Shown: positions 1,599 to 58,536 of the stretch, piece after piece
Numbering within the stretch: position 1 is the stretch's first letter
Layout: each line of letters starts with the position of its first letter
Assembly: GCA_964187785.1 (NCBI GenBank)
Contig: OZ076409.1
Coordinates: forward strand, 32,862,001-32,926,000
Source: Amphiscolops sp. MND2022
Taxonomy: Eukaryota
DNA length: 64,000 nt
Direction: 5' to 3'
Translations under genes and position numbers: made by a program
The notes under the pieces: model-generated
Databases searched by the model: none
What the model was told of the DNA's origin: nothing
What the model saw: the letters and a program-made list of their open reading frames with translations, nothing else

Positions 1599-1609
1599 AC
1601 CTTTTCACA

Positions 1610-3776: not shown

Positions 3777-3881
3777 ACAAAATCATTTGCGGAGCATTTA
3801 TTGAAGCAAACAGTTGCCGTCACTCACTACTTATCCATCATTGTTCTTTCAAAAGATTACCGCAAGCACTAGTTGAAGATC

Positions 3882-4412: not shown

Positions 4413-4475
4413 ATCACGCACTGCAAGCTGGCTGCAGCATCAGTATCTTCGAGTGGCAATTTTTTCGGGAGCGCT

Positions 4476-6320: not shown

Positions 6321-6419
6321 ACGAGGAATTAAAGTTATTAGGCTGTATACACCTGTTTTCTTCGATTCGCGGATTTTGTTCACCATTAGAGAGAGAGATC
6401 AGTTGAAGCGAAATTTCAT

Positions 6420-10826: not shown

Positions 10827-11394
10827 GGTGAAATTCGTTCTTTTAGTTCATAAACAGGTAAAAAGTCGTGGTCCGTTTATTTCACTACAAAAAAATCAGC
10901 ACGGAAAAAACAGCACTTTGTATTTTGGGACCACGGCTTTTTACGGTGCTGGTTCACGTTTTCCGATATTATAGAATTCAAATTAAAATATAACAGAGCG
11001 TCGCAATAGTACTATAGAAAGTGAATTTGAATTGAGGCTCAGTTCATTAGGTGAGAAAGTCGAATTATCGGATTGAGAATTATCGGATTGACCAAGTCAG
11101 AATTTGATAGCCTACTTTCACTTTTGTTAGTTTTGTTCATTTTCCGATTTCGGTACCGAAACTGCCGTTAAAAGTTTGCACAACAAAGTAATTGTGACTA
11201 CGGATGACAGTTGGTTTGCATAGGATTTGATAATCTATATTTGGTTCAAATTGTACTTCGAACTCTCTGACTTAGATGAATTTCGGTTTGGGATCGAAAA
11301 ATTACACTTAGTGGTTTGGGATCGAAAAATTGCAGATGGTGGTTTGGGATCGAAAAATTGCAGTAAACCCCCCCCCCCTTCCCTTACTACTACT

Positions 11395-11915
11395 GTCAAC
11401 ACTGGCGCCTCATTCCAGCCTAATGTACTTCTTACTGAATCAAAGGAAGTACTATTTAGGGAACTTTGAAAATTTCAGAAAGAAATAGACGACATACAGG
11501 CAGAGTACAATTGAAAAAATGCAATAAATTTATGTTAAAACTTATGTTTCAACAATTTGATTTTTCTTCACATTCAAAAATTTAAGGCAAATGGCTTGAC
11601 TAATATTCCTCCTTTTAAGACTTATGTTTATTGCTGGTGGCTGGATGCAGGATTGGAGAGCAGTCAAGTCTCAGGAGCAAGGATCACAATCCTCAGACTA
11701 GTTACTCTTTTGAAACAGAAATTTCTCTTATTGAAAACAGAACTATGCAATTGTCGAGTTATTTCGTAAATCATTCATAGTTATTTTTTGAGGACGATGA
11801 TCAAATTGAATCAAAGATTAAAATTCTGTCATGAGTAAAATTGTTTTGAGGTCAAATATTTAAGAGTCCCTTCAATTAGTTCATATGTCTTCAAATGGAA
11901 TGTTTCAGCTATGAT
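11395..11915 (+). repeat. Diverged partial copy of the 1.12-kb repeat unit; target site of the Polinton
   Basis: ACACTGGCGCCTCATTCCAGCCTAATGTAC... through ...GTTTCAGCTA matches the end of the array unit and the flank at 21857-21937. Confidence 0.85.
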
Positions 11916-19300: not shown

Positions 19301-21857
19301 TTTTACTTAAGTTTTAACAATTTGATTTTTCTTCACATTCAAAAATTCAAGGCAAATGGTTTGACTAATATTCTCCTTTTAAGACAGTTGTTTTTGGCTG
19401 GTGGTTGGATGCAGGAATGGAGAGCAGTCAAGTCTTCGGATCACAATAAATCATAGTAGTTACCATTTCTCTCATTGAAAACCAAGGATGCATTTGTCGA
19501 GTTATAGCCCTCTCTGTAGTTTATGATATTCGTAAATTATATTAATTTGTTTAAAGATGATGATCAAATAGAATCAAAGATTAAAGTTCTGTCATCGAAC
19601 AACGAATTTCAAACTTTCGAAGCAAAACAAGAAAAGTTTGAAATTCAATTTGTGGAGTTTTTGTAACAATTACAGTTTTCGGTGAAAAAAGAAAATTTGC
19701 AATTGAGAAGGAGTTAACTAAGTTTCGAAGTGATTCGCAGTTGAGTTCAAAAAAGTAACATACGTCAGACAAAAGTTCATTTGAAATCGAAAACAACGAA
19801 CACTATAACATTTACTGCTTCAGAAATAAATCACACATCGAGTGTATTCGTCTTGGCATTTTGAAGTCGTTACGAAATTGAATACAGATATCGCAGCATC
19901 AAAAGTCGCCCGATTGGAGACTTTCACCAAAACCTTTCGTTGATTTCTATAATTTCCAGTTTCTGTTGTGCCGTGTTTGTTTCAGTTATTACAGCCTCGT
20001 GGATGTGGAGCTGGACGTGGATGATGTGACAGGAACACAGTGGGTTGTTGCTCGGGGGTCTCGTGTGACCTTTTTTAGACAAAAAGGATAGTTCTTCTCA
20101 GTATTGCATAGTGAGGATCGTTATCTTCCTGTCACCAAGTAATATTCCTCCTATTATGATGTTTCAAGAAAGTTTTCAGGCAAGCGGAAGTTGTCGTGAC
20201 TTCTGTTGAAATCCCAAGCTCGTTTTAAATGTTTGAAGTTACAAGGTATGCCAAAACAGGTTTTGGACTTTAAATTTACAAGGCCGTTAACTGTCCACAC
20301 TGGCGCCTCATTCCAGCCTAATGTACTTTTTACTGAATCAAAGGAAGTACTATTTATGGCATTTTTTGAAACAATTCCAGAACGAAATAGACGACATAGA
20401 GGCAGAGTACAATTGAAAAAATGCAATAATTTTTTTACTTAGGTTTTAACAATTTGATTTTTCTTCACATTCAAAAATTCAAGGCAAATGGTTTGACTAA
20501 TATTCTCCTTTTAAGACAGTTGTTTTTGGCTGGTGGTTGGATGCAGGAATGGAGAGCAGTCAAGTCTTCGGATCACAATAAATCAGAGTAGTTACCATTT
20601 CTCTCATTGAAAACCAAGGATGCATTTGTCGAGTTATAGCCCTCTCTGTAGTTTATGATATTCGTAAATTATATTAATTTGTTTAAAGATGATGATCAAA
20701 TAGAATCAAAGATTAAAGTTCTGTCATCGAACAACGAATTTCAAACTTTCGAAGCAAAACAAGAAAAGTTTGAAATTCAATTTGTGGAGTTTTTGTAACA
20801 ATTACAGTTTTCGGTGAAAAAAGAAAATTTGCAATTGAGAAGGAGTTAACTAAGTTTCGAAGTGATTCGCAGTTGAGTTCAAAAAAGTAACATACGTCAG
20901 ACAAAAGTTCATTTGAAATCGAAAACAACGAACACTATAACATTTACTGCTTCAGAAATAAATCACACATCGAGTGTATTCGTCTTGGCATTTTGAAGTC
21001 GTTATGAAATTGAATACAGATATCGCAGCATCAAAAGTCGCCCGATTGGAGACTTTCACCAAAACCTTTCGTTGATTTCTATAATTTCCAGTTTCTGTTG
21101 TGCCGTGTTTGTTTCAGTTATTACAGCCTCGTGGATGTGGAGCTGGACGTGGATGATGTGACAGGAACACAGTGGGTTGTTGCTCGGGGGTCTCGTGTGA
21201 CCTTTTTTAGACAAAAAGGATAGTTCTTCTCAGTATTGCATAGTGAGGATCGTTATCTTCCTGTCACCAAGTAATATTCCTCCTTTTATTGTTTCAAGAA
21301 AGTTTTCAGGCAAGCGGAAGTTGTCGTGACTTCTGTTGAAATCCCAAGCTCGTTTCAAATGTTTGAAGTTACAAGGTATGCCAAAACAGGTTTTGGACTT
21401 TAAATTTACAAGGCCGTTAACTGTCCACACTGGCGCCTCATTCCAGCCTAATGTACTTTTTACTGAATCAAAGGAAGTACTATTTATGGCATTTTTTGAA
21501 ACAATTCCAGAACGAAATAGACGACATAGAGGCAGAGTACAATTGAAAAAATGCAATAATTTTTTTACTTAGGTTTTAACAATTTGATTTTTCTTCACAT
21601 TCAAAAATTCAAGGCAAATGGTTTGACTAATATTCTCCTTTTAAGACAGTTGTTTTTGGCTGGTGGTTGGATGCAGGAATGGAGAGCAGTCAAGTCTTCG
21701 GATCACAATAAATCAGAGTAGTTACCATTTCTCTCATTGAAAACCAAGGATGCATTTGTCGAGTTATAGCCCTCTCTGTAGTTTATGATATTCGTAAATT
21801 ATATTAATTTGTTTAAAGATGATGATCAAATAGAATCAAAGATTAAAGTTCTGTCAT
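16307..21857 (+). repeat. Tandem array of five ~1.12-kb units
   Basis: Units start at 16307, 17353, 18475, 19597 and 20729 (GAACAACGAATTTC); near-identical ORFs recur in the ORF track. Confidence 0.97.
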
Positions 21858-22578
21858 AAGTGAAATATTTTAAGGTCAAATAATTAGGAGTTCCTTCAAT
21901 TAGTTCAAATGTCCTCAATATAGGAATGTTTCAGCTATTGCAGTTTGCTTGTTCTTTTGCTTCACGAACTTGCTGACAATCTCCCATGCATAGACAGGTT
22001 TTAGGTTATACTGATGATTTATTTTCCGAGATTTACAAGTTTTTCAATTTCACAGCGTCGACTAAAAAGTTAAAAGGGGAATAATCATTTGCTCCCATAT
22101 AGTTTTGTAATACACGTAAAATGATTAATTAAACAGACTCTTTGGACGCTCTAAAGGATTGAAACAAGAGCATAGAACGGCTACTGCTGATCGCTTTTCG
22201 CTACCTGAAGTGAAAACTGCCTCGCTATTTTTGCCTTTTGGACAGATAGTTTGTAACAAAAGTGAATTTCTATAATTATCCATATTTTACCATAAGAATC
22301 ACACGATGGACCACTTTGTAAAGTTGCACGTTTTGGATGCTAAATGACACCTGCTATTGAAAATAGCCTTTCCACTGCCGCATCACTTGCCCCAGAAGTT
22401 TTGTCAGTGCGCTCTGTGGCACACTTGACCAATATTGGCCTGCACAGAGCCGAAAAACCTGAAAGAGGATTTCTTTGCTACTTTCTAGCTTTGTAATGTG
22501 GTCCTAGTTACATTTTAGACTCGCTAGTAGTTTGTGTATATATATTCATTACAAATCGCAGGGGGGGGGGGGTTTGGC

Positions 22579-22678
22579 AAAAATTTCATTTCTACCAAAG
22601 ACTATGAGTCCCTCCCGGGACTCGAACCTCGCCAGTTGAAATGATGGGCCAGCGACCTAACCACTATGCCACGAAACC
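22579..22678 (-). ncRNA. tRNA-like Pol III cassette, left-arm copy
   Basis: On the - strand: A box TGGCATAGTGG, B box GGTTCGAGTCC and a downstream T5 run. Confidence 0.5.
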
Positions 22679-22734
22679 ATCTCAACCAGTATTTACAGGT
22701 TCTATATAAACCCAATAAATACCTAGTGAGCACA

Positions 22735-23065
22735 CCCCTCCTCCACACTCTACATGCAAAAATTGAAAAATTTTGAAAATCTTACAAAAACTCGGGAAAG
22801 TATCTGGAACAATCAGAAATGAAAAAAACCGCATCGTTGACATCAGAAAACAAAAAACGATAAAAAACTGTCAAAAATGTAACCCCCCCTTTACACTCTA
22901 CATGCAAAAAATTGAAATTTTTGAAAAACTCGGGAAAGGATCTGGAACAAACAAAAATGAAAAAAAAACGCATCGTTGACATCAGAAAACAAAAAAACGA
23001 TAAATGTCAAAAATGTGAACACAACCCCCCCTCCACAATCTACATGCAAAAAATCGAAAAATTTA
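22735..23065 (+). repeat. Subterminal ~140-150 bp direct repeats of the palindromic element
   Basis: TCTACATGCAAAAA recurs three times in the left arm; the right arm (38500-38695) has one unit fewer. Confidence 0.8.
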
Positions 23066-26000
23066 AAATTTTTCAAATAACCCAGAAATGGTGTGAAACA
23101 TTCAAAACTCTTGTTAGTTAAAAGCGTCTCAATCATCAATCATGAGGGCAAAAGGTCCCAGTAAACACTTCCTCAGGACATGTAAAATCTCAAAAACGAA
23201 CAAAAACAGAAAACGGAACTTGCTTCAACATGGAGTTTTGCAGCAAGATTTTGACCGTGGAAGACAACTAAAACCAAACTATTAGAAATGTTCTTTCTGT
23301 AAACCTCATTCCAACGGCAGTCATTCATGGGAAATGAGAAACCCAAATTCAAGAGTGCCCATGACTGACTTGTAAAGTCATTTAATTCCGCTGGTTGAAC
23401 AGCTATGAATTTAGGCCGCATTATGCTGTTTGATACGAAGCAAATTATTCATTTTACATAAATCCGTATAACTATAGTCATTGCTACCAGTGTTTATGCT
23501 AACCGAGGATAAACAGGACTATATACCAGCAAAGCCGGCAAAAGCAGGGCTCATGCTTACCAATTCCAATTGAGCATCATATCTGCTAATCAATGACAAA
23601 CATCGTACTTACACCTTCTGATCGTGATCATAAAAGTCTTAAAAATGTAAGATATTACTACGAAGCTCCTTTCAGCGAAGGGTTATTGAAATTTAGAAGC
23701 CAAGCATTTAACTTGTCTCGTTTTGGACTGTAAATGAGACATTATTGTGCCCATCAAGAAAAACTTTACCAGTCGGCTCTCTACCAGTAATATTCATCTC
23801 AATATCCAGGCGTTTAGTACTGCAGTTAATTTAAAAAATATATCAAAGAAATCCCTTGTGAAATCACCGATTTTTGGGTTTTCAAGAGAGACAATTTACG
23901 CTATCAAAACTTCTAAACCTTGTCTTTCTCATCTCAATGCTTGGGTATCTTTTGTCTCAAGTGTAACAGTCTGTAATCAATTGCAGGTCTAGTTTACATC
24001 CATTGCGCCAATTTTAGTACTGGATTTTTAAGCAAAAAATAAAACAGATAGTTAATTGCACTCGATCAAATCACAACCTGGTCATCTCAGGTAAATATAG
24101 CGAAGAGACTTCAAGTTACTTGTTTTCTGATCTTTGATACTTTCGATACTTTTCCAAAATCAAAACCTACATCTAGGGCTGTTCAGTCCCGCAGTTTCCG
24201 CCTAACTGGAGAATAAATTCCATATACCAATATATACTAGGTTTCATTGTGTTCAAGTATTTTAGTGATGGTCGAAAAATATGATAACTCCACCACTCCA
24301 ATTATATGCTTACCGATAATTCAAGCTGCTTTCAGAGAATAGAATAAATTGACATTTCGGAAACTTTCACAACAAAATGTCATGCAAACCGGGGTTTCCT
24401 TTCGATTACCTGCAAATTAGAATAGGTACTGCTTGAAAGTTGGAGAAAAGTCTACATATTGATAGAATTGCACGCCAGTGAGCTTTGTTTTTTGAAGGTT
24501 GCCTTGGATTGAAAAGAAAGGAAACCTTACGCTCATCTTCGTTTTCAATGGTACTTCTTGAATACATCCAACTGAGACACGGAGCTTTTATATAGACACG
24601 GAGCTCTGACCAAGAATTGAATGTTTCAGAATGCATCTACCTACGAATGAGGATTCTAAATAGTGTAAAGTCGTGACCAATCAAGAGTATGGTCTATATC
24701 GTCTCAAACATCATATCATTACCGCCCCAGCCTGACGGTAGATCAGCTGGATCTTTTCACTACTACATAGTCAAGTATCTCCCAATGTTTAGAGCTGTAT
24801 ATATTCAAAAAGTTCACAATGCCTAGAGCTGCATATTCATGCACTTCCCATTTTCCAGAGTGAACGTTTTCTGCTAAAATTGTCTCTTTCTTGATGCCGA
24901 GAATTACATGGAAGGTTTTGAATATTATACGTTGCTATTTTTTATAATTCATGCAATCTCAACATGAGACTGACAACATTTGTCAGTTATAAAAGCAACT
25001 TTAAAATGAGTCAGATTGAGTACGCAAAAGCTCCACTAAACCAGCTGACGCACGTTCAACAACTGTAATAAACACTTACACATACTGTGTCGGTACCGCT
25101 TTTGATCTTATCCAGCGTCGCACTCTGCAGAGTCTGTTTGCTCAATTATTTTCTAATTGCTTGACTGATGTTAAAAACAAATGCCACCCGGGACACGCTA
25201 TTGAAGCTACTGTTTAATGATTAATCACAAGTACAAAGGGCCGACGTCGCTTTCATGTTTACACAGCGTGTCGCTCTGTTTGATCAATCTGGAATTTGTA
25301 ACTACGGAGATCTATATGCCACTCGCGACACGCCTATTGAAGCTACTGTGTAATAAACAATCAAAAATACAAAGTTCTGGTGTCGCTTTCATGTTTACAC
25401 AGCGTGTCGCTTTATTTAATCAATATGAAATTGGCAACTACAGAGATCTATTGATCCAATATCAATCTTGCATCCGGTCTGCTCGACCAAAACAAAAACA
25501 ATCCATACTAAATTTTGTTTACGATGAACTAGCGAATGGAAATGATTCGAATTTTGAGGTCTCGATTCTGTTTCAATCATAAGTATCTTGTTTAAAAACA
25601 TTCATCAAATTTAGTGAATGAAAAAAGAATAGAAAGCCATTTCGGTGGTGTTAAAGTTTTGTGCCTGGTAAACATTGTTTTGTATGCAACAAGTTCTCTG
25701 TTGTGTCAAATGTGATTGAGATCCTCCCAATCCAGACGGCAGTACGGGGGAGAAGAAAATCAAAAAGAGGATTGCTCAAAGCTATACGGGGGCTGCTGAC
25801 GTCAAGAAGCAAAAACTGCTGATAAGAAGGAATGAAAAGTTGTACAACTCATTTCAAAAGTAATTGCAGCATACAAGTTTTGTTAATTTTCCTGTTTTCA
25901 TATCCATTAATCGTAGTTAAATAGGTTTTTTGAATGTTTTTGTTTCTATTTCATTTTTCGTGCATCGGTACATCCCATCTTCTCAATCGTTTTTGTTTGA

Positions 26001-29000
26001 TGTGAACTGTGCTACAATGCTTTCTTTTGTTTGCCCCTGATTTTGTCTTTTCTTCAATCTACCCTTTTTATCATTAGTTTTTTAATCATTTATTTCGTTT
26101 TTGTTTCAATTGCATACGCTCCTCTCCTCATTTACGCTCTATCCCATCTTATACTGTAACGTATCGATTTGAGTTTATTTTTGATGTGTGTTTTTTATTT
26201 TAAGTGTTGTTGTTCCCTTCCTGTGGTATCCGATCTTTTTTGCAATCTTCACCTCATACGTTTAAAATAATTACTTGATTTACCTTTTTAATGTGCTTTA
26301 TTCTATTTAATCCTGTCGTTGTTCCAACTCTGTACGTTAATGGAGTATTCAATATTTAGCTAATCCGCACTATTTCATTTGTAAGTGTGATGCTTTTGTT
26401 TAATCTTGAAGTCCAGTGAAGTAATATATACTCGATATATACATTTTTTCACCTCGTAGGTTTTTGAATTAGTTTCATCATCCCGAGTTTTTTTTTCGTT
26501 GTTGAGATAGTATTGGGTATTGAAAACACTTCGTGAAAAACTACCCAAAAACTTTTTCACACCATTTCATAGCAACCTTGATGAAATATCTTTTTCCGAG
26601 CGTTTTTGAGTAAAGGAATGTTTTCGGTGGCGTTTCTCAAGAATGTGCAAGCATCTTGAAACTCGAATTGTCTCATGCAACTGTAAACCCCGTGATCCAA
26701 GCAACTGTTTTTGGTTTTCTATAGTCAATGTTAAGTAATTGTATCAACTTTCATTTACAGTTTTTTTGTAGACGAAATATGGTGGAAGCAATGCATGAAC
26801 AGCATCCGGACTTTTTCAAACAACATCGGAAAAAATTTCGGTACCTGGTGTTGGAAAAGGAACCAAGGATTGGGCTTGATATGCCTTCAGGATCAAATTA
26901 CGCATTTGGAGTTCATTCTTTTACCTCTGATTATCTTTGCGGCTTTGAGAAACAACCACACTACCATGTTCTTTTTGAGTGCGATTCCAGTAATAGAAAA
27001 GGTTACAATGTACCGTGCCTCTATTGAACGTTCTGTCTACTGTTGGCGGATTGTTCGAGTCTCGTCATGCAAGGTGGAATTATGAATCGTCTGCAGGTTG
27101 CAATGAAGTACAACGTAAAAGAAAACAAAACCTTGCCAGCGCAGGGTCGACGCAAAGTTCCTGTTGTTCAAATCAGACGAGACAAAAGTGTTCAAACTGG
27201 TTTTTTACCGACTGCCACGTTTAGCCGATTTCAGCAGTTGATTCAAGGCCCATCAGCTGCAACTTTGTACAGAATCTTAGACATTCTCAATGACGGATAC
27301 GGAAGCATCGACACTACTAATTTGTATTTTTCGATTGACAATTCCAAAACTTTGTAAAGCTTGCACAGTTTATGAGGAATACAATGTGGCAAGAATATAA
27401 TCTTCAAACCAGTGTTTCCTAGTCAAGGAAAAGTCAGTGTTTCCTAGTTTAAGGATTAAAACTGAGCAGTCAGGTATAAATAAATTGGATCATTGTGTAC
27501 TGACAGGTTTGCACTATCAATAAATCATCGGAACGCTGGTCACGCTTAGTAGTAAAAATTGTTTACATGATGAAGTTGCGCCGTTAGATTCAAACGAATT
27601 GGATCATTGTGTAGTGGCATTTTAACGCTGTCATTAATTCATATGAATGTTGCGCATATTGACAGTGTGACGGAAGCTGTCAAAGCATGAAGAAGCAGGA
27701 GTATCAGATTCGCTACACTAGGAAACGAGAACTGGAATTTCATGCATGTAATTTGGTTCTGTACATGTACTGTCTAGCCAATGAGTCAGGTCAGATTTTG
27801 AGATATAGTACTCCAGGGTACAAGCGTGGTTTATTCAAGACTATATACTCAATGATTAAACTGCAACACATGCTTTGTTTGCCGTTGCAAAATTAATTCT
27901 TTTCAACTCCGTCAAGCAACTCGTTTCAACCAGTTCTTTCAAGACTCAAAACTTCACGGTAGAGCAAAAACTTTGATAGAATGTGCCCACTCAAACACAT
28001 TATACTTTGGTTGTTCCCAAATCCAAAGGCGTTTAGTGTTAACCCGAATTATTAACTCTCAAGCTCAGATATCAATCTAGAGAAATAGAAAACGACCAAA
28101 ATGTATATTCGTTTTTGAGTTTTGATTTTTGGTGAACAATTGGGCACATTCTTCAACTTGTCAGCAATTGACCTTCCATGAAACTACCAATGCAGACTTT
28201 CACTGGTGTGTCTGGTAACTCGCGGTTCACATTTTATGAAACTTGGTTCAATAAAACAATAGCAATAATTGAAGAAGCATGGTGGGAGGACGTCTGGTCG
28301 ATAAAAAGCTCAGTTTCAATCCCAAACGATTTGTTTATTCTGCTGCGAGTGGAATGTGTATCGGGAACTAATCCAAACAGCTTCAACCTAACGGACACTG
28401 TAGAAACGCCATTGACTACAACAAAAGTTTATGATCGTTTCTAATTGCCGTATGGTGTACGACAGCTTCTGTTTGACATTGACTGTCGAAATATACCCGT
28501 TTCAGAAAATCAGTTGGGTTGTATGACAGACTTGGAAAATTTAGAAAGTTACTGGGATATAAGAGGTACCCCTGAATCACCACAAGACGCTTCATGTTCT
28601 CTGTCGCCAAATATTGCCGACACAAACCAAGACCAAATTGCTTGTGACAGTCCAATCAAATCAGGAACTAGCCCAGTAAAGGAATGACCGCCAGCGCCAA
28701 AGAAGAATAGAGTTGAAAAATTCAAAAGGACAGCATTGGAAATAGCTAAGCTTGATCTCGCAGACGTTTGACAAACTTTCTTGATGTGATGTTTTATTAC
28801 TTGTTTGTTTGTATCATCGTTCAAATCATTGCTTCAACTTTGTCATTCAAGTCATTTTGTAATAAACTTTTCAGCCATTCTTTTCTACTGCCTAGCTTGA
28901 TCACCTCACAGGAGTAAACTTGTGCAGCTTTGAACCTTTGAATCGCTGAAGAAAATTGATATCGCAGCTTGTCTCAACAATCGGACAGTGGGTGAGAAAA

Positions 29001-29926
29001 AAAACAAAATAGCCAAACCTTGATGGTGAATAACCCTTTACTTATATTTACTCTTCTTGGTGAAGCCAACTCTTTTCAGAAAACGAAAAATGATAAAAAA
29101 ATCTTTTCAGAAAATTAACTTTTCAATGGTAATTTGAATTCAATCCCCTCTTAGACTTTTGTCTTTGAATACAAACTCCAATACGTAGCATTGATTGTTT
29201 CTCAAGGAATGATCGATGGTCTCAGTTAAAATCAAATGTTTCATTGCTCGCTTGACGCGGTAGCCAGATGGAATAATTTCCATCTGTCTCCTGAAAGTTT
29301 TTTCATCTTTGCTCCTGAGGTCTTTCAAGTAAACTGACAAGATGAAAGGACCTTTGAACTCCTTTTTGTTTGGATCCACCAATTCTACAGAGAGCGATAA
29401 GCTTTCTCCGGAACTTGTCTCCAGAATAAGTTCGACCGTTACCTCAATTTAGCCCACGTCTTCACACTGTAGGTGTGTTTTACTAAAGACACACAATTTA
29501 GGTTCTTGCTCACTGACGATAATAGCTGCGAAGGCCTTGAGGTGCTCGAACGCTTCCTTGTCAATTTTTATTATTGCCATGCATTCTCTAGTACAAGTAT
29601 TCGTCAATATGGGTGTGCGAAAACCCACAGTCGAGTCCGAAAAAAATCACATAAATTTGTGTGTACATCATCAGGCATTGTCTGAAGTAGAGCAGACTTT
29701 TTTAAAACTAATTTTCAAGGTCCATGTTTAATCTAGTTCTTTCAAACGTTTGGGTACGACAATCTATTTTCGTACTTTCGATATGAAACCTAACTAATGT
29801 TGATACCCATTTTCCAGTTTCACCGGTAAAACGATGTGACAATGTTTCTTGAAAAGACATCTTTCTAGGCATTCATTCTCACCAAACCATGTTTTATAAT
29901 TTTGACGTCTTTTTCAGAGTTTCTCT

Positions 29927-31106
29927 ATGAAAAGCAACGCTTCAACTTCAAATTTGCCAGAGCAGCGAAACACTGAGGACCACAAGAGTTTCAACCAAAA
30001 TGAAGAGCCAATTGCCAGTTTCAACAAATTGCGAGATGAGGTTCTTTGCTTGAAAACTCTACTCTCTGAATTGCGAGATGAGTTGTGGTCACTAGCGAAA
30101 AAATTCCCCTTACTCAATGTAAAAGTGTTCCAGTACATCCCCTCAATGCAACTTTTTACTGCACAAATGCGAGAAGAGGTATCTGAACTGAGGAATGAGA
30201 TGATTGAGATGAAAAGCGAAAACATTGTCCATGAAACAAGGAATACCTCTGGCTCTACATAAACTCTCGAGGTGTCGAGTAGAAGGATTGGAATAAAAGT
30301 AAACCTCAGCCTAAACTATTCAATGCAGCAAGAAGCAGTGGCGAAATCAAGGAAAACGCAGCAAGCGGTAGCGAAATCAAGGAAAGCAGCTCCGTTAAAC
30401 CTGTGGAAAGAGAAAGTCTAAACGAAGATGTCATAAAGCGTCAAAACAAATTGATTGAAAGTTACTCAAAAAAACATTGTTCCACTTGAACAATTTTCTC
30501 GCCATTTGCTCGAGCGTATAAAAAGTCTGGAATGTGGCCGTAATGGGTCAGTTGTTTGGAAACTCAGTGGCTTCAACCATATTTTCGAGGCGGCGAAAAG
30601 AGCTGAAGTCAAATCAAAAAATGAAAAAGTGCCAACAGATTTTAGTAGTCCAATAATTCTCACAGGTTCTCCCGCATACTCTTTGTATGTGAGACTATTT
30701 CCATTTGGATGCGAGGTGGCAGCTGGCAATCACGTTTCTATTTTTGTTGCCCTAATTCCCGGAATGTATGATGCCATTCTCAAATGGCCATTCAAGTCTA
30801 CAATCAAAATCAGCGTCATTAGTCAACATGATCCTGCTGATAGATCAATAGACGCGATCAATAGTTCCTAGTGAAAAAACTGGGAGCTGCTTCAAGCGTC
30901 CGTCTTCTTGTAAAGGAAACATGTCGGTTGGTATACTGCATTTCCTACCACACAGGTGAGACAACATTAAACAAAATTCGTTGTGAGTAAGTTTGAATAA
31001 AATTGTGATCAATTTTTTTCCAAGCTTGTTACATGGATGCAGCAGAGATCATGGATACCTAAAGGAGGATTCAATGTTCATCGAAGTTCCCTTTTCTGCT
31101 GAATGA
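29927..31106 (+). pseudogene. TRAF-like gene (coiled coil + MATH domain), disrupted, with an intron at 30956-31024
   Basis: VVWKLSGF, SSPIILTG..YSLYVRLFP.G, GNHVSIF..L.PG.YDAILKWPF, CFKRP....N...G...F and GYLKEDSMFIEV are TRAF-MATH hallmarks; frameshift near 30850 and stops upstream. Confidence 0.85.
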
Positions 31107-33865
31107 AGTATTTATTTTGTGAACAAAAATGTCAAGTTCGTTTTGTTTTATAATCCTAAATTTAAATATCAAACTGAACTTTCAACCTAGTTTTCATGAG
31201 CTGCTATAGACGATATGAATGCAAACGTTGACTGATTATACTCAATTATCAGAAAAGTTTCATCAGTGTATATCTTAAAATTTTCCCGATTCAGACTTCT
31301 TTAACTTCAATCGGTAACCTGAGAGCTAAAATTTACAATATCAGTCGTTAGCGGTACGTTATTAAATGATAACATCAGAGAGAGACCTTTTCAAACAAAA
31401 CGGATATCACCTCGTTTATCATTAAACTGGAAAATGGGTATCAAAATTAGTTCGATTCAATATCGAAAGTACGAATATAGATTGTCGTACCCAAACGTTT
31501 GAAAGAACTAGATTAAACATGGACCTTGAAAATTAGTTTTAAAAAAAGTCTGCTCTACTTCAGACAATGCCTGATGGTGTACACACAAATTTATGTGATT
31601 TTCTCTCGGACTCGACTGTGGGTTTTCGCACACCCATATTGACGAACACTACTAAAAAATGCATGGCAATAATAAAAATTGACAAGGAAGCGTTCGAGCA
31701 CCTCAAGGCCTTCGCAGCTTTTATCGTCAGTGAGCAAGAACCTAAATTGTGTCTTTAGTAAAACACACCTACAGTGTGAAGACGTGGGCTAAATTGAGGT
31801 AACGGACGAACTTATTCTGGAGACAAGTTTCGGAGAAAGCTTATCGGTCTCTGTAGAATTGGTGGATCCAAACAAAAAGGAGTTCAAAGGTCATTTCATC
31901 TTGTCAGTTTACTTGAAAGACGTCAGGAGCAAAGATGAAAAAACTTTCAGGAGACAGATGGAAATTATTCCATCTGGCTACCGCGTCAAGCGAGCAATGA
32001 AACATTCAATTCTTACTGAGACCATCGATCATTTCTTGAGAAACAATCAATGCTACGTATTGGAGTTTGTATTCAACGACAGAAGTCTAAGAAAGGATTG
32101 ACTTCAAATTACCATTGAAAAGAAAAGTTAATTTTCTAAAAAGATTTTTTTTATCATTTTTCGTTTTCTGAAAAGAGTTGGCTTCACCTAGAAGAGTAAA
32201 TAGAAGTGAAGGGTTATTCACCATCAAGGTTTGGCTATTTTGTTTTTTTTCTCACCCACTGTCCGATTGTTGAGACAAGCTGTGATATCAATTTTCTTTA
32301 GCGATTCAAAGGCTCAAAGCCGCACAAGTTTACTCTTGTGAGGTGATCAAGCTAGGCAGTGGAAAAGAATGGCTGAAAAGTTTATTACAAAATGACTTGA
32401 ATGACAAAGTTGAAGCAATGATTTGAACGATGATACAAACAAGTTATAAAACATCACATCAAGAAAGTTTGTCAAACGTCTGCGAGATCAAGCTTAGCTA
32501 TTTCCAATGCTGTCCTTTTGAATTTTTCAACTCTATTCTTCTTTGGCGCTGGCGGGCATTCCTTTACTGGGCTAGTTCCTGATTTGATTGGACTGTCACA
32601 AGCAATTTGCTCTTGGTTTGTGTCGGCAATATTTGGCGACAGAGAACATGAAGCGTCTTGTGGTGGTGATTCAGGGGTACCTCATATCCCAGTAACTTTC
32701 TAAATTTTCCAAGTCTGTCATACAACCCAACTGATTTTCTGAAACAGGTATATTTCGACAGTCAATGTCAAACAGAAGCTGTCGTACACCATACGGCAAT
32801 TCGAAACGATCATAAACTATTGTTGTAGTGAATGGCGTTTCTACAGTGTCCGTTAGGTTGAAGCTGTTTGGATTAGTTCCCGATACACATTCCACTCGCA
32901 GCAGAATAAACAAGTCTTTTGGGATTGAAACTGAGCTTTTTATCGACCAGACGTCCTCCCACCATGTTTCTTCAATTATTGCTAGTTTTGTTGAACCAAG
33001 TTTCATAAAATGTGAACCGCGAGTTACCAGACACACCAGTGAAAGTCTGCATTGGTAGTTTCATGGAAGCTCAATTGCTGACAAGTTGAAGAATGTGCCC
33101 AATTGTTCACCAAAGATCAGAACTCAAAAACGAATATACATTTCGGTCGTTTTCTATTTCTCCTCTAGATTGATATCTGAGCTTGAGAGTTAATAATTCT
33201 GCTTAACACTAAACGCTTTTGGATTTGGGAACAACCAAAGTATAATGTGTTTGAGTGGGCACATTCTATCAAAGTTTTTGCTCTACGGGTTGCTTGACGG
33301 AGTTGGAAAGGAATAATTTTGCAACGGCAAACAAAGCATGTGTTGCAGTTTAATCATTGAGTATATAGTCTTGAATAAACCACGCTTGTACCCTGGAGTA
33401 CTATATCTCAAAATCTGACATGACTCATTGGCTAGACAGTACATGTACAGAACCAATTTACATGCAAGAAATTCCAGTTCTCGTTTCCTATTGTCGCGAA
33501 TCTGATACTCCTGCTTTTTCATGCTTTGACAGCTTCCGTCCCACTGTCACAACATGCGCAACATTCATATGAATTAATGACCGTTGAAATGCCACTACAC
33601 AATGATCCAATTCGTTTGAATCTAACGGCGCAATTTCATCATGTAAACAAATTTTACTACTAAGCGTGACCAGCGTTCCGATGATTTATTGATAGTGCAA
33701 ACCTGTCAGTACACAATGATCCAATTTATTCATACCTGATTGCTCAATTTTAATCCTTAAAAAAAAACAATTTTCGCTGTCAAGCACTGGCTGACGTTGA
33801 CAAGGAAACACTGGTTTGAAGATTATATTCATGCCACATTGTATTCCTCATAAACTATGCAAGCT

Positions 33866-34441
33866 TTACAAAGTTTTGGAATTGTCAATCGAAAAATACA
33901 AATTAGGAGTGTCGATGCTTCCGTATCCGTCATTGAGAATGTCTAAGATTCTGTACAAAGTTGCAGCTGATGGGCCTTGAATCAACTGCTGAAATCGGCT
34001 AAACGTGGCAGTTGGTAAAAAACCAGTTTGAACACTTTTGTCTCGTCTGATTTGAACAACAGGAACTTCGCGTCGACCCTGCGCTAGCAAGGTTTCGTTT
34101 TCTTTTACGCTGTACTTCATTGCAACCTGCAGACGATTCAGAATTTCACCTTGCATGACGAGACTCGAACAATCCGCCAACAGTAGACAGAACGTTGAAT
34201 AGAGGCACGGTACATTGTAACCTTTTCTATTACTGGAACCGCACTCAAAAAGAACATGGTAGTGTGGTTGTTTCTCAAAGCCGCAAAGATAATCAGAGGT
34301 AAAAGAATGAACTCCAAATGCGTAATTTGATCCTGAAGGAATATCGAGCCCAATCCTTGGTTCCTTTTCCAACACCAGGTACCGAACATTTTTCCGATGT
34401 TTAAAAAAGTTCGGATGCTGTTCATGCATTGCTTCCACCAT
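33866..34441 (-). CDS. Hypothetical protein with HUH-like motif
   Basis: 191-aa ORF containing YAFGVH...KQPHYHVLF; the left-arm copy (~26779-27357, +) has TCA>TGA at 27025. Confidence 0.55.
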   Translation of the reverse strand: MVEAMHEQHPNFFKHRKNVRYLVLEKEPRIGLDIPSGSNYAFGVHSFTSDYLCGFEKQPHYHVLFECGSSNRKGYNVPCLYSTFCLLLADCSSLVMQGEILNRLQVAMKYSVKENETLLAQGRREVPVVQIRRDKSVQTGFLPTATFSRFQQLIQGPSAATLYRILDILNDGYGSIDTPNLYFSIDNSKTL

Positions 34442-35365
34442 ATTTCGTCTACAAAATAAACTGTAAATGAAAGTTGATACAATTACTTAACATTGACTAT
34501 AGAAAAACCAAAACAGTTGCTTGGATCACGGGGTTTACAGTTGCATGAGACAATTCGAGTTCCAAGATGCTTGCACATTCTTGGGAAACGCCACCGAAAC
34601 ATTCCTTTACTCAAAAACGTTCGGAAAAGGAAGTTTCTTCAAGGTTGCTATAAAATATAAAGGTGTGAAAAAGTTTTTGGGTAGTTTTGCACGAAGTGTT
34701 TTCAATACCCAATACTATCTCAACAACGAAAAAAAAACTCGGGATGATGAAACTAATTCAAAAACCTACGAGGTGAAAAAATGTATATATCGAGTATATA
34801 TTACTTCACTGGACTTTAAGATCAAACAAAAGCATCACACTTACAAATGAAATAGTGCGGATTAGCTAAATATTGAATACTCCATTAACGTACAGAGTTG
34901 GAACAACGACAGGATTAAATAGAATGAAGCACATTAAAAAGGTAAATCAAGTAATTATTTTAAACGTATAAGAGGTGAAGATTGCAAAAAAGATCGGATA
35001 CCACAGGAAGGGAACAACAACACTTAAAATAAAAAAAACACACATCAAAAATAAACTCAAATCGATACGTTACAGTATAAGATGGGATAGAGCGTAAATG
35101 AGGAGAGGAGCGTATGCAATGGAAACAAAAACGAAATAAATTATTAAAAAACTAATGATAGAAAGGGTAGATTGAAGAAAAGACAAAATCAGGGGCAAAC
35201 AAAAGAAAGCATTATATCACAGTTCACATCAAACAAAAACGATTGAGAAAATGGGATGTATCGATGCACGAAAAATGAAATAGAAACAAAAACATTCAAA
35301 AAACCTATTCAACTACGATTAATGGATATGAACTCAGGAACACTAACAAAACTTGTATGCTGCAA

Positions 35366-35731
35366 TTACTTTTGAAATGAGTTGTACAACTTTTCATTCC
35401 TTCTTACCAGCAGTTTTTGCTTCTTGACGTCAGCAGCCCCCGTATAGCTTTGAGCAATCCTCTTATTGGGATTGGGAGGACCCATGCTAATGTTTTCTAC
35501 ATTCGCTATCATTTCCTGAAACTCCTTGACAGTGAGACCCACTCTCTGTTGCAAGCGAAAGTCATCTTGATCCTCTTTTTTCTTGAACAACTTGATGTAG
35601 ATGTATGTAAGACCACTGTCTTTATATGTGTTTGTGGTCACGCGGACAAGTCGTTTATCAGATGATGCCACGTCAATATGGGCATCTCCAAACTCGAGAT
35701 CTTTTGAGGCTGTGAGAGAGCTGAAAGTCAT
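35366..35731 (-). CDS. PC4-like ssDNA-binding protein
   Basis: RLVRVT.NTY..SG.TYIYIKLF.......QQRVGLT..EFQEM...V.NI follows the PC4 strand-strand-helix pattern; most of it is absent from the left arm (~25720). Confidence 0.55.
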   Translation of the reverse strand: MTFSSLTASKDLEFGDAHIDVASSDKRLVRVTTNTYKDSGLTYIYIKLFKKKEDQDDFRLQQRVGLTVKEFQEMIANVENISMGPPNPNKRIAQSYTGAADVKKQKLLVRRNEKLYNSFQK

Positions 35732-38700
35732 CGCTGATTTCTGCTACATTTTGACTGGTGATTATGCTGTTCTACCGGTGATCTCAAGACAAATGTCTGA
35801 AAAAAATTAACTGACAAAAAACTTGAAGTAAACTGAAGCTCAATGACATTTGACACACCAGAGAACTTGTTGCATACAAAACAATGTTTACCAGGCACAA
35901 AACTTTACCACCGAAATGGCTTGCTATTCTTTTTTCATTCACTAAATTTGATGAATGTTTTGAAACAAGATACTAATGATTGAAACAGAATCGAGACCTC
36001 AAAATTCGAATCATTTCCATTCGCTAGTTCATCGTAAACAAAATTTAGTATGGGTTTTTGTTTTGGTCGAGCAGACCGGATGCAAGATTGATATTGGATC
36101 AATAGATCTCTGTAGTTGCCAATTCCATATTGATTAAATAAATCGACACGCTGTGTAAACATGAAAGCGACACCAGAACTTTGTATTTTTTGATTGTTTA
36201 TTACAGTAGCTTCAATAGGCGTGTCCGCGAGTGGCATATAGATCTCCGTAGTTACAAATTCCAGATTGATCAAACAGAGCGACACGCTGTGTAAACATGA
36301 AAGCGACGTCGGCCCTTTGTACTTGTGATTATTCATTAAACAGTAGCTTCAATAGCGTGTCCCGGGTGGCATTTGTTTTTAACATCAGTCAAACAATTAG
36401 AAAATAATTAAGCAAACAGACTCTGCAGAGTGCGACGCTGGATAAGATCAAAAGCGGTACCGACACAGTATGTGTAAATGTTTATTACAGCTGTTGAACG
36501 TACGTCAGCTGGTTTAGTCGAGCTTTTGCGTACTCAATCTGACTCATTTTAAAGTTGCTTTTATAACTGACAAATGTTGTCAGCCTCATGTTGTTGAGAT
36601 TGCATGAATTATGAAAATAGCAACGTATAATATTCAAAACCTTCCATGTAATTCTCGGCATCAAGAAAGAGACAATTTTAGCAGAAAACGTTCACTCTGG
36701 AAAATGGGAAGTGCATGAATATGCAGCTCTAGGCATTGTGAACTTTTTGAAAATATACAGCTCTAAACATTGGGAGATACTTGACTATGTAGTAGTGAAA
36801 AGATCCAGCTGATCTACCGTCAGGCTGGGGCGGTTATGATATGATGTTTGAGACGATATAGACCATACTCTTGATTGGTCACAACTTCACACTATTTAGA
36901 ATCCTCATTCGTAGGTAGATGCATTCTGAAACATTCAATTCTTGGTCAGAGCTCCGTGTCTATATAAAAGCTCCGTGTCTCAGTTGGAGGTATTCAAGAA
37001 GTACCATTGAAAACGAAGATGAGCGTAAGGTTTCCTTTCTGTTCAATCCAAGGCAACCTTCAAAAAACAAAGCTCACTGGCGTGCAATTCTATCAATATG
37101 TAGACTTTTCTCCAACCTTTCAAGCAGTACCTATTCTAATTTGCAGGTAATCGAAAGGAAACCCCGGATTGCATGACATTTTGTTGTAAAAGTTTCCGAA
37201 ATGTCAATTTATTCTATTCTCTGGAAGCAGCTTGAATTATCGGTAAGCATATAATTGGAGTGGTGGAGTTATCATCTTTTTCGACCATCACTAAAATACT
37301 TGAACACAATGAAACCTAGTATCTATTGGTATATGGAATTTATTCTCCAGTTAGGCGGAAACAATGCGGGACTGAACAGCCCTAGATGTAGGTTTTGATT
37401 GTGAAAAAGTATCGAAAGTATCAAAGATCAGAAAACAAGTAACTTGAAGTCTCTTCGCTAGATTTACCTGAGATGACCAGGTTGTGATTTGATCGGGTGG
37501 AATTAACTATCTGTTTTACTTTTTGCTTAAAAATCCAGTACTAAAATTGGCGCAATGGATGTAAACTAGACCTGCAATTGATTACAGACTGTTACACTTG
37601 AGACAAAAGATACCCAAGAATTGAGATGAGAAAGACAAGGTTTAGAAGTTTTGATAGCGTAAATTATTTCTCTTGAAAACCCAAAAATCGGTGATTTCAC
37701 AAGGGATATCTTTCATATTTTTAAATTAACTGCAGTACTAAACGCCTGGATATTGAGATGAATATTACTGGTAGAGAGCCGACTGGTAAAGTTTTTCTTG
37801 ATGGGCACAATAATGTCTCATTTACAGTCTAAAACGAGACAAGTTAAATGCTTGGCTTCTAAATTTCAATAACCCTTCGCTGAAAGGAGCTTCTTACATT
37901 AGTAATATCTTACATTTTTAAGACTTTTATGATCACGATCAGAAGGTGTAAGTACGATGTTTGTCATTGATTAGCAGATATGATGCTCAATTGGAATTGG
38001 TAAGCACGAGCCTTGCTTTTGCCGGCTTTGCTGGTATATAGTCCTGTGTATCCTCGGTTAGCATAAACACTGGTAGCAATGACTATAGTTATACGGATTT
38101 CTGTAAAATGAATTAATTTGCTTCGTATCAAACCGCATAATGCGGCCTAGAATCCATTCATAGCTGTTCAACCAGTGGAATTAAATGACTTTACAAGTCA
38201 GTCATGGGCACTCTTGAATTTGGGTTTCTCATTTCCCATGAATGACTGCCGTTGGAATGAGGTTTACAGAAAGAACATTTCTAATAGTTTGGTTTTAGTT
38301 GTCTTCCACGGTCAAAATCTTGCTGCAAAACTCCATGTTGAAGCAAGTTCCGTTTTCTGTTTTTGTTCGTTTTTGAGATTTTACATGTCCTGAGGAAGTG
38401 TTTACTGGGACCTTTTGCCCTCATGATAGATGATTGAGACGCTTTTAACTAACAAGATTTTTGAATGTTTCACACCATTTCTGGGTTATTTGAAAAATTT
38501 TAAATTTTTCGATTTTTTGCATGTAGATTGTGGAGGGGGGGTTGTGTTCACATTTTTGACATTTATCGTTTTCTTTTGTTTTCTGATGTCAACGATGCGT
38601 TTTTTTTTCATTTTTGTTTGTTCCAGATCCTTTCCCGAGTTTTTGTAAGATTTTCAAAAATTTTCAATTTTTGCATGTAGAGTGTGGAGGGGGGGATGCT

Positions 38701-38750
38701 CACTGGGTATTTATTGGGTTTATATAGAATCTGTATATGCTGGTTGAGAT

Positions 38751-38849
38751 GGTTTCGTGGCATAGTGGTTAGGTCGCTGGCCCATTATTTCAACCGGAGA
38801 GGTTCGAGTCCTGGGAGGGCTCATAGTCTTTGGTAGAAATGAAATTTTT
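38751..38849 (+). ncRNA. tRNA-like Pol III cassette, right-arm copy
   Basis: A box 38758-38768, B box 38801-38811, TTTATATA about 30 nt upstream, TTTTT at 38845-38849; acceptor stem pairs poorly. Confidence 0.5.
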
Positions 38850-39933
38850 GCCAACCCACCCCCTGCGATTAGTAATGAATATATATACACAAACTACTCT
38901 CGCTTCATGACGATATGAAACCACTGACAAAGTTAAACAAATTGAACGAAGAAGGACCATTCAGTGTGAACAAAAATTGCATCTAGAGCCGACAAAGAGC
39001 GCCAACTAAAAACAAGTGCTAAGGTACTTAGTGCAAGGCTCGCGAACTGGGCAAAATACAACAGAATTTTTCTTCAGATCAAAAACTCAGTGAATGGTCA
39101 ACTATTCAACAGATTTTTGGCTCAATATTTAAAGAGCATACAAATATGGGCAAAAATTTGCTTGAGTGTTTCGGTACCGTGAAATTTTCGAATAGTAAAA
39201 ACTGTCTCTGAAAGGTCCCCTCTGTCGTCTCAAGATTTTTCGGTTTTTGAGCATCAAGGGGAGAGACAACTTTAAACATTCCCTTCTTTTCAAAGCTACC
39301 AATACAAAATAAAAGTAGATCATTTTTGGTATTTAACTGAGTTGAATGAAATGTGATTATATTAAAGCTATATATTTGGAGTGAAAGGGATGTTACAAAA
39401 CTTCAAAACAAAAATTTCTACGTGGAGAGCAGTTTGCTATTCGTTCTCACCGGGAGTAGACACTGATTTGCTTTTCCAGCCAATGATCTCGCAGCCCTTC
39501 AAATTCTTCGTCGTCATCCCCAAAACCCATGGCCCGCATGGTTGAATGGGAAAACTGTCTCCCCACCCTTTTCATTTCGTTCGCTGCACTCTATTATTTC
39601 ATATCACATACCTGAATTGACAGTTGCACCAATCAGTTCTGCATTGGCACCATAACTCATGCAGTCAGTTTATATTTGAAAATATATATTCCATCAGTTT
39701 TATTTACACCAAAATCATGAATCATAACACTGTGATTTAAACCTTAAATTGCTAGTTAATCAGCAAATTCTACGAAAACAAAGCAGCAGCCATTATTTAA
39801 CTCATTCGAAATAGAAGCACCGACTTCAAACGATTAAAAAATTTCATGAGAAATAGAAAACTAGATACAAACCCTTGGATCTACTTGATCGATTGGAGAT
39901 TTATTTACAGAGGCTGAATGAATTGAACACTTT

Positions 39934-40878
39934 TCATAGACCCTTATTATAATGAACATGAGTTAGAAAAGGTTGGTCAGTCCTGATTTTGGATTGCAAA
40001 CTGCTTTCAAGTCTGTCTATTTTGATGGTTGAGTGCTGGGGGAAAAGAGCAACAGCCACGGGGAGTACAAAGTAAGTACATATACCGATGAGAGATGCTT
40101 CCAAGAAGATGCTGAGTGAGCGGTCTAAAACTTTCTCCAAAACTAGGCCACGTTTGGAAAACTGTTTTTGAATTGCGCTCATTGCAAGTGTGGGAAAGAC
40201 CATAATCGGAATAGCGGCAGAAATTCTAGTAGCAACAACTTGCATCAAACACATACAACCCAAAAGTCTCGACTCTCCCAAGATTTTCCCACCAGTATCG
40301 TTCACTGTAATTCCTTTCAAAAGATCCTGCTGTCTCATGAGAGGCACATTTACGATGTTACCAGCGCATACTGCGAAGAATGGAACAAATTTAGAAGCAA
40401 GAGGATAACTAGATCGCTTAGCGATTTGTGACAACTTGTAAGACACCGCCACGGCTGTCCCTGTAGCACTCAAATAGGCAGTTATTATTTGCCCGGTCGT
40501 GAGAGAAGATTGTGCATTCCTATTGGTGTAGTTGCAAAAAGCCATGAAGGACTGATTGATCCACTGAGTTGTCACAAGTTGGAGAGGCGTTCGGTAAAAA
40601 GTTAGCATAAGAGCAGTTACTATAGTATTCCCGGGTATTTGGAAGCTCATTCTTCCAACAATGGGGTTCATTTCCTTAGTGTCAGGGTGAAAAGCTGACG
40701 CATACAAAGTTCTCGCCCAATGCAGATCACTATGATGAACCGTTTGAGGATTTTTCGCGAAATCCTCTAGAATATCTCTAGCGAAATGTAATTCTTGTTT
40801 CGATTTGAGCAGCCACACCGGACTCAGTACACCTTTGAAATATTTATATCGTTCGAAGAAAGAATCGCTTGAAGACAT
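39934..40878 (-). CDS. SFXN: Sideroflexin (mitochondrial inner-membrane carrier), intronless
   Basis: SAFHPDT, GRMSFQIPG, QWINQSF, NYTNRNA, PFFAV...N..NVPLMRQ and the terminal YNKGL are family signatures; intact 314-aa ORF. Confidence 0.95.
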   Translation of the reverse strand: MSSSDSFFERYKYFKGVLSPVWLLKSKQELHFARDILEDFAKNPQTVHHSDLHWARTLYASAFHPDTKEMNPIVGRMSFQIPGNTIVTALMLTFYRTPLQLVTTQWINQSFMAFCNYTNRNAQSSLTTGQIITAYLSATGTAVAVSYKLSQIAKRSSYPLASKFVPFFAVCAGNIVNVPLMRQQDLLKGITVNDTGGKILGESRLLGCMCLMQVVATRISAAIPIMVFPTLAMSAIQKQFSKRGLVLEKVLDRSLSIFLEASLIGICTYFVLPVAVALFPQHSTIKIDRLESSLQSKIRTDQPFLTHVHYNKGL

Positions 40879-43567: not shown

Positions 43568-44107
43568 TCTGTGTTCACAGAGAGCCGAAAAACCTGAAAG
43601 AGGAATTCTTTGCTACTTTCTAGCTTTGCAATGTGGTCCTAGTTACATTTTAGACTCGCTTCATGACGATATGAAACCACTGACGAAGTTAAACTTGAGG
43701 ATCAGAATTGGATCGTCGTCATCAATCAGCTTTTCTTAAAAAACGCTTCTGTATTCATCATGTGCCCCCAGCCCGGGCGGCAGACAAAAAAATCCAACCA
43801 ACATAGGAAACATTAAAAAAATAAGGAAAGGATCATGCAACCAGAGAGTTCAAAGGACACAGGAGGAATCTCAATTCAGAAACTCAAAGAGGCATGTGAA
43901 CTGGTAACGATTACGAAGCAAAGAAGACATATATTTCCTTATGAAACAAAACGGACATTAAAACGCGGATTTACAAGTAGTAAAGTTCGCGTAAGTGGTC
44001 TTCGTCCCGAACCGTTCCAACTACACTGGCCGCATTGCCTACCTGGATTGCGAGAGAGTCTCTGCCTGAAAAAGGACCCGGCTCTATTTTCTTGATTGCA
44101 CACGCAC

Positions 44108-58450: not shown

Positions 58451-58536
58451 TGGCATAGAGGTTAATTAGGATTTTTTGAGGTCTGCCAATCAGAAGGACG
58501 TGGGTTCGAGTCTCCCCCTTGACCGAAGTTTTTTTG
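58451..58536 (+). repeat. tRNA-derived SINE-like head
   Basis: TGGCATAGAGG (A-box-like), GGTTCGAGTC (B box) and a T7 run; no cloverleaf. Confidence 0.45.

Follow-up and report, generated by a model that had tools for sequence, protein, structure and literature searches.

Adenoviruses and Polinton-type host elements are related through their protein-primed polymerase, and blocking of PKR is a property of adenoviral VA RNA. This RNA, about 160 nt in length, is reported to act on Dicer and Exportin-5 (PMC7589676), and foamy viruses are described as carrying dumbbell pri-miRNA cassettes for RNA polymerase III (Pol III) in their terminal repeats, the products of which feed the host's double-stranded-RNA machinery (PMC3993851, PMC7693620). 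For Polintons, a target duplication of 5-8 bp, a size of 13-25 kb and inverted repeats of 100-1500 bp are given (bioRxiv 10.1101/2023.08.22.554363). At the level of abstracts, the literature yielded no small non-coding RNA or Pol III gene of a Polinton/Maverick, with the supplements possibly holding annotations of terminal repeats, and the abstracts likewise yielded no comparable gene for DNA transposons with tRNA-derived Pol III promoters.

Within a 64-kb stretch of DNA, referred to as the window, we identified a non-autonomous palindrome with Polinton-type ends whose terminal repeat holds a cassette of Pol III signals. The cassette is real and looks intact. Among the known Pol III genes considered here, it is most like the foamy-virus LTR cassette in its anatomy, and its promoter is EBER-like.

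A fold-back element with Polinton-type termini

The element that carries the cassette and its main features are the following:

22526..38898 (no strand): fold-back (palindromic) element with AGTAGT...ACTACT ends
22520..22525 (+): left copy of the 6-bp target-site duplication CTCGCT, from the empty-site paralogue
38899..38904 (+): right copy of the 6-bp target-site duplication CTCGCT, from the empty-site paralogue
38457..38698 (+): subterminal repeats of about 145-155 bp, each with a G-rich box at its end, immediately upstream of the cassette
33866..34486 (-): arm gene of a multi-copy family, with an HxH motif and a weak HUH-Rep-like fold
35366..35743 (-): ORF resembling PC4 (Atlas score 0.84), to be taken only as a lead
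30455..30871 (+): TRAF/MATH-domain ORF in the non-palindromic centre (PF21355, E 3e-14)

The element measures 16,373 bp (16.4 kb), with arms of about 7.3 kb flanking a centre of 1.6 kb. A paralogue of the flanking host repeat, located at 43578-43694, crosses the insertion site and contains CTCGCT only once, which proves both the 6-bp duplication and the exact ends of the element. We take the AGTAGT terminus to be a hallmark of Polintons. The 6-bp duplication and the size of 16.4 kb fall within the Polinton ranges of 5-8 bp and 13-25 kb, whereas the inverted arms of 7.3 kb compare with Polinton repeats of 100-1500 bp (bioRxiv 10.1101/2023.08.22.554363). Of the features by which an autonomous Polinton/Maverick is recognized, the element thus shows the 5-8-bp duplication and the inverted ends, but not pPolB and integrase. 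The ORF list, Pfam and tblastx revealed no pPolB, integrase or capsid gene in it, and this distinguishes it from Polintons/Mavericks proper. The stretch 29800-38898 gave no tblastx match to the Polinton core genes located elsewhere in the window (1-10.8 kb), nor did the whole element match any of 76 distant Polinton loci (711,776 bases; pPolB identity in the best segment 28-44%), of which 49 came from prokaryote genome contigs by means of an alignment query and 27 are viral; a single-query search of the prokaryote genome contigs found nothing. The element is a non-autonomous fold-back element with Polinton-type termini and without Polinton core genes.

Aligned against each other, the arms differ by 245 mismatches in 7156 columns overall and by 157 in 6575 (2.4%) in the interior, the latter figure omitting three mis-aligned blocks and the terminal block. 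The subterminal repeats number two in the right arm and three in the left.

The mirror copy of the arm gene, at 26725-27357, is split. This gene belongs to a family that falls into 154 clusters at 50% identity and shares a conserved HxH motif; for one arm gene 36 relatives were retrieved, every one of them from ENA, and one cluster has 93 members. The family also holds clusters at 60-65% identity. A 62%-identical cluster contains a pair on a contig of 8,956 nt, and another includes three pairs on equal-sized contigs among the 15 members listed. Judged from lengths only, this suggests that two mirror gene copies per element are a trait of the family, and the element probably belongs to a family whose arm genes occur as mirror pairs. 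The model of the arm protein (pLDDT 90) gives weak alignments, at best with Z 4.5 and rmsd 3.2 over 74 residues, to HUH Rep nucleases and to viral origin-binding domains, with Reps making up most of the top rows; Foldseek returned no match at E<=0.001, and a search for the arm gene among viral contigs gave no relative. A modelled Rep-like domain inside a palindromic element hints at hairpin-type resolution, which we offer as a lead only. The PC4-like ORF has no Pfam PC4 match, and the TRAF/MATH ORF is possibly a captured host signalling gene.

Parts, spacing and position of the cassette

The cassette is present once in each arm, and one further unit with A and B boxes occurs in the window:

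38719-38849 (+): right cassette, TATA to terminator
38751..38849 (+): predicted Pol III transcription unit at the right end, with a putative start between -12 and +1
38719-38726 (+): TATA-like TTTATATA in reverse (Pol III-type) orientation, first base at -32
38758-38768 (+): A box TGGCATAGTGG
38801-38811 (+): B box GGTTCGAGTCC
38845-38849 (+): T5 terminator, the first run of at least four T downstream of the TATA
38708..38715 (+): additional TATA-like, AT-rich 8-mer with a putative role, located 11 bp upstream from the main TATA
22579-22710 (-): left (mirror) cassette, TATA to terminator
22579..22678 (-): mirror transcription unit at the left end, first base in tRNA register 22678
22703-22710 (-): mirror TATA-like element
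22661-22671 (-): mirror A box
22618-22628 (-): mirror B box
22579-22583 (-): mirror T5 terminator
22714-22721 (-): mirror of the second TATA-like 8-mer
58451-58535 (+): tRNA-like A/B-box unit of the host, from a relaxed A+B scan

When the base seven before the A box is taken as +1 (tRNA register), both copies place TTTATATA at -32, the A box at +8 and the B box at +51, and T5 follows at +95 in the right copy and +96 in the left. Between terminator and element end there are 49 bp on the right and 53 bp on the left. The initial annotation had described an A box, a B box, an upstream TATA-like element and a T5 run as an outward-facing unit of about 100 nt that ends some 50 bp from each terminus, with a mirror copy at 22579-22678; all parts are present, the mirror copy with the same parts lies on the minus strand, and the Pol III anatomy, the outward direction and the terminal position were correctly recognized. 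As mirror arms of a single element, the two copies do not represent independent occurrences.

Both boxes fit the consensus sequences TRGYNNARNNG and GGTTCRANYCY (PMC12498455), and the gap of 32 bp between them is the A-B distance given for TFIIIC bound to both boxes (PMC12409998). The inner spacer of 27 nt is the same as in 99 of 111 phage tRNA-type loci, these having been retrieved with a pattern that permits spacers of 22-32 only. The A-B spacing falls within the 30-60 nt expected of a type 2 Pol III gene, and, as in such a gene, a terminator of at least four T is found downstream and none inside. The cassette is free of T4 runs from the TATA to the terminator, although T4-free stretches of equal length are frequent, at 33% of arm windows and 20% close to the end. 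Read on the other strand the TATA is TATATAAA; Pol III in Drosophila extract is reported to have used a TATA in reverse orientation (PMC1636458). The second TATA-like 8-mer could serve an earlier start. Inspection by eye against the consensus revealed no proximal sequence element at the usual distance upstream.

To what extent such an arrangement could be a chance assembly of box-like words within an AT-rich terminal repeat was estimated from randomized sequence. In 1500 Markov replicates of a 7.5-kb arm only seven A+B pairs arose, which amounts to 0.0047 expected per arm. A relaxed scan of the 64-kb window returned three real matches, namely the two mirror copies and the unit at 58451, with 11 of 100 replicates giving one match. 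The TATA+A+B pattern, the TATA letters of which were derived from the cassette site itself, matched twice in the window and in none of 100 shuffles. That the two mirror copies count as one event speaks for chance; the scarcity of box pairs, the absence of the full pattern from all shuffles and the tRNA-exact spacing speak against it. We consider chance assembly very unlikely on the basis of the seven box pairs in 1500 arm replicates and the 100 shuffles without the full pattern.

The predicted RNA and its alternative folds

Over the candidate starts, the transcript has a predicted length of 95-111 nt. Fold prediction points to the following segments:

38740..38753 (+): leader segment (-11..+3), predicted to pair with the A-B spacer at 38784-38797
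22676-22689 (-): mirror leader segment
38785..38800 (+): A-B spacer strand, predicted to pair with 38827-38842 (long 3' stem) or with the leader
38806..38822 (+): 7-bp apical hairpin, retained in both copies despite one substitution and one indel (pair probabilities 0.8-1.0)

The predicted unit folds with z scores of -2.6 and -2.5 in the two copies and of -2.4 to -3.4 over four starts. When the shuffling leaves boxes and terminator in place, 19/2000 and 44/2000 shuffles fold equally well; none of 123 arm windows reaches the folding energy of the unit, and three of the 123 have a lower z than the one placed over the unit. With a start at +1, both copies are predicted to form a short hairpin spanning the A box on the 5' side, followed by a 3' domain that consists of a 16-position stem between A-B spacer and tail, a 5x4 loop and the 7-bp apical hairpin. 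This 3' stem dominates at that start (probability 0.91-0.95). With a start at -9 to -12, a helix between leader and spacer dominates in the left copy (0.99-1.0) and competes in the right (0.22-0.42), and it would give rise to a pre-miRNA-sized hairpin of 58 nt at the 5' end. The spacer thus has alternative partners depending on the start, so the start site would set the fold. Whichever start is used, each predicted fold contains only one hairpin of pre-miRNA size, the foamy-type layout being otherwise present; a clean pre-miRNA would not have the 5x4 internal loop that interrupts the 3' hairpin.

Both stems were tested against shuffles, having been picked after the folds were seen. The spacer-tail stem spans 16 and 13 positions in the two copies, reached by 9/3000 and 73/3000 shuffles, respectively, and the leader-spacer helix has 14 contiguous pairs in both, a number reached by 7/5000 and 2/5000. 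The partners in leader and tail are alike at 9 of 11 positions and can also be read as a worn insertion duplication, that is, as an 11-bp direct repeat (9/11 matching) at -10..+1 and +81..+91 around the cassette body. In that case, a single fortuitous complementarity would account for the two alternative stems. When three near-copies of an 11-mer were sought with a general test, neither copy passed it, while 23 of 300 random windows did.

Relation to tRNA genes, VA RNA and SINEs

That the cloverleaf is not properly formed, as had been noted from the outset, is borne out. ARAGORN called no tRNA gene on the cassette, and Rfam gave no tRNA, VA, vault or EBER match at E<=10 and only chance-level matches. 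In tRNA register the acceptor stem has 5/7 pairs, four of them G-U, in one copy and 4/7 in the other; the D stem reaches at best 3/4 (five registers), the anticodon stem at best 3/5 and the T stem 3/5. A tRNA gene is therefore rejected by ARAGORN, stem counts and Rfam, since the four-stem cloverleaf is not formed. Descent from tRNA-Glu is a weak lead, in that Glu accounts for 93 of the 103 phage tRNAs that share the D-loop and T-loop words of the cassette, but the spacer comparison does not support it: the cassette spacer is not significantly closer to Glu spacers than shuffles are (78/300 and 34/300). In addition, blastn of the unit against phage sequences gave no match.

The proposal of a VA-like small RNA stands with respect to the Pol III anatomy and the significant fold, but not with respect to length, terminal stem and Rfam. 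An adenovirus VA RNA in the strict sense is rejected, as the transcript would be 95-111 nt across all candidate starts compared to about 160 nt, and as two side-by-side hairpins are predicted in place of the 5'-3' terminal stem, central domain and apical stem of a VA RNA, without an Rfam match.

A common SINE occurring outside such elements had been named as a finding that would speak against the proposal. Outside the element, the 64-kb window contains no copy of the cassette, and neither an A-rich tail nor a SINE body was detected at the cassette within these 64 kb. The one other A/B unit in the window, at 58451, has only box letters in common with the cassette; it carries a T6 run between its boxes and T7 behind them and is likely a dead tRNA or SINE head. 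In a metagenome scan, the 16-nt A-box word occurred at at least 119 loci, comprising tRNA-SINE-like heads and unrelated DNA; among the matches listed (119 loci), 43 carry both boxes, mostly with a gap of 32-34, and blastn of these listed loci against the window gave no match. Beyond the boxes, homology of the cassette with the 58451 unit is rejected and no similarity to the SINE heads is seen, since 642-1988 of 3000 and 64 of 300 shuffles, respectively, score equally well.

Comparison with known Pol III genes and with other Polintons

Like the foamy-virus LTR cassettes of BFV and SFVagm, the cassette sits in a terminal repeat, combines an A box and a B box with a terminator, and has two closely spaced predicted hairpins within about 100-150 bp (PMC3993851, PMC7693620). 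It differs in belonging to a DNA element with inverted ends instead of a retrovirus, and in a second hairpin that is short or broken by a 5x4 loop. With the EBERs of EBV it shares a type 2 internal promoter, an upstream TATA-like box and G-rich upstream boxes (PMC8223928), whereas it is shorter and has no sequence or Rfam similarity to them. Internal A/B boxes, a U-run terminator and a proposed tRNA origin are common to the cassette and adenovirus VA RNA I/II, as is the possibility that alternative starts could alter the product (PMC7589676). In contrast to VA RNA I/II, the cassette RNA would be about 100 rather than 160 nt long, has no 5'-3' terminal stem and no Rfam match, and is encoded in a terminal repeat, whereas VA genes lie inside the adenovirus genome.

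The MHV68 TMERs and the Pol III pre-miRNAs of BLV also use a tRNA-type promoter to drive hairpin RNAs (PMC8223928, PMC12498455). The cassette does not have the cloverleaf that precedes the hairpin in TMERs (PMC8223928). With an early start its A box would fall within the 5' hairpin as in BLV, but its B box lies inside the transcript whereas that of BLV lies behind the terminator (PMC12498455). Heads of tRNA-derived SINEs resemble the cassette in having A/B boxes in tRNA register and a decayed cloverleaf; unlike them, the cassette has no body or tail, has its own terminator and upstream TATA, and shows no dispersed copy in the window.

In the 76 distant Polinton loci, the relaxed A+B pattern gave one match compared to 0-2 in five controls, and a loose A+B pattern 16 compared to 12-15. 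None of six whole virus records matched the cassette, and viral contigs contained no A-box/B-box word pair of the cassette and, by single query, no pPolB relative. A possible terminus is visible in only about five of the 76 loci. On sequence grounds the cassette is no general Polinton trait, this negative being limited by the roughly five loci with a possible terminus.

Conservation of the cassette between the arms

Conservation could be compared between the two arms of one element. Inside the unit, the copies differ by four substitutions and one indel, and all of these changes except one substitution preserve predicted pairs; three further substitutions fall between the TATA and +1. TATA, boxes and terminator are free of arm-to-arm changes, a sparing that is not significant (P 0.077). 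The terminal block (22526-22790 compared to 38645-38898) differs at 13/254 positions, or 5.1% as opposed to 2.4% in the interior (P 0.012). With the terminal block more divergent than the interior, no stronger constraint is visible. The two ends of the element may stem from different copies or may have been swapped between elements.

Origin and possible function

Our preferred reading, which we hold tentatively and at a little less than an even chance, is that the cassette is a tRNA-derived Pol III gene for a two-hairpin RNA that works like VA RNA or the foamy-virus LTR cassettes without being a VA RNA. TFIIIC would bind the A and B boxes and place TFIIIB on the reversed TATA; Pol III would start between -12 and +1 and stop at T5, 50 bp short of the element end. 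The product would be an RNA of 95-110 nt, read outward and folding into two hairpins, in which the A-B spacer, at the former position of the anticodon arm, would pair with the 3' tail if transcription starts at +1 or -5, and with the leader, forming the 58-nt 5' hairpin, if it starts at -9 to -12. By analogy with the viral RNAs, it might be a decoy or substrate of the host double-stranded-RNA machinery, either as a Dicer/Exportin-5 decoy or as a small-RNA precursor that shields the element from RNA silencing. Most likely the cassette is part of the family's terminal repeat, and its occurrence in two copies reflects nothing more than the mirror symmetry of the arms.

The cassette might instead be a passenger without a role, a tRNA pseudogene or the head of a tRNA-derived SINE that had at some time inserted close to the end of an ancestral element and was then copied along with the terminal repeat. 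The boxes in exact tRNA register and the relic acceptor stem (5/7 with four G-U) are in keeping with such a past, and the 9/11-matching 11-bp direct repeat around the body could be the worn duplication of the insertion. At least one further tRNA-like A/B unit exists in the host (58451), and its first box letters are identical; animal DNA is rich in tRNA-derived SINE heads bearing this A box (most of the 119 loci listed), the terminal block is not better conserved, and the cassette is absent from the 76 distant Polinton loci. Against a passenger, the likeness to the 58451 unit and to SINE heads is limited to the boxes, no A-rich tail or SINE body accompanies them, the 64-kb window has no copy outside the element, and the boxes are perfect although the cloverleaf is gone; the TATA at -32 would lie outside any retroposed body and would have to be there by chance. 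Taken together, we judge a passenger possible, though on the unlikely side. Somewhat further down we place a DNA platform, which strikes us as doubtful: TFIIIC and TFIIIB, bound 90-180 bp from each end, would form a chromatin barrier or keep a terminal origin or integrase site open, the RNA being a by-product. Its symmetric position at both ends, adjoining the terminal 50 bp, would suit such a platform, and tRNA genes and TFIIIC sites are described as heterochromatin barriers (PMC12409998). However, bare TFIIIC (ETC) sites are described as extended B boxes without TFIIIB and Pol III (PMC12409998), whereas the cassette has TATA, A box and terminator together, and the region is more stably folded than shuffles with the boxes fixed, something a barrier would not require. 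As for the insulator in the terminal repeat that had been proposed as the alternative to a small RNA, the TATA at -32, the clean run to T5 and the significant fold speak for a transcribed RNA rather than for a TFIIIC site alone.

A more far-reaching form of the preferred reading, that of a small-RNA gene, would see here a palindromic, Polinton-mobilised family with its own tRNA-rebuilt, start-switched anti-silencing Pol III RNA in the terminal repeat, as the Polinton counterpart of adenovirus VA RNA; as a whole, we regard this as unlikely. If it were true, Pol III counter-defence RNAs would have arisen repeatedly among adenovirus-related invertebrate elements. Should the cassette be transcribed and selected, abundant virus-like elements would possess a counter-defence RNA as adenoviruses, herpesviruses and foamy viruses do, and escape from RNA silencing would become directly testable in Polintons. 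Such an escape would matter all the more as palindromic arms would readily produce double-stranded RNA. A barrier would make this a mobile element with built-in insulators, and a relic would add one more captured tRNA.

Other features of the window

A separate Polinton core occupies 1-10847, with a packaging ATPase, an integrase, capsid-like ORFs and a protease; its pPolB is split over two frames. Among named sequences, the closest relative of this pPolB comes from Convolutriloba macropyga (55% over half of the query), which makes the host an invertebrate, perhaps an acoel. No terminus or cassette belonging to this core lies within the window. Five tandem copies of a 1.12-kb unit, 98-99% alike, are found at 16441-21857, and a diverged partial copy of the same unit (78-79%) at 11392-11912 adjoins the Polinton polymerase. 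On the other side, 1 kb from the right end of the element, the minus strand carries an intronless sideroflexin ORF (39934-40878).
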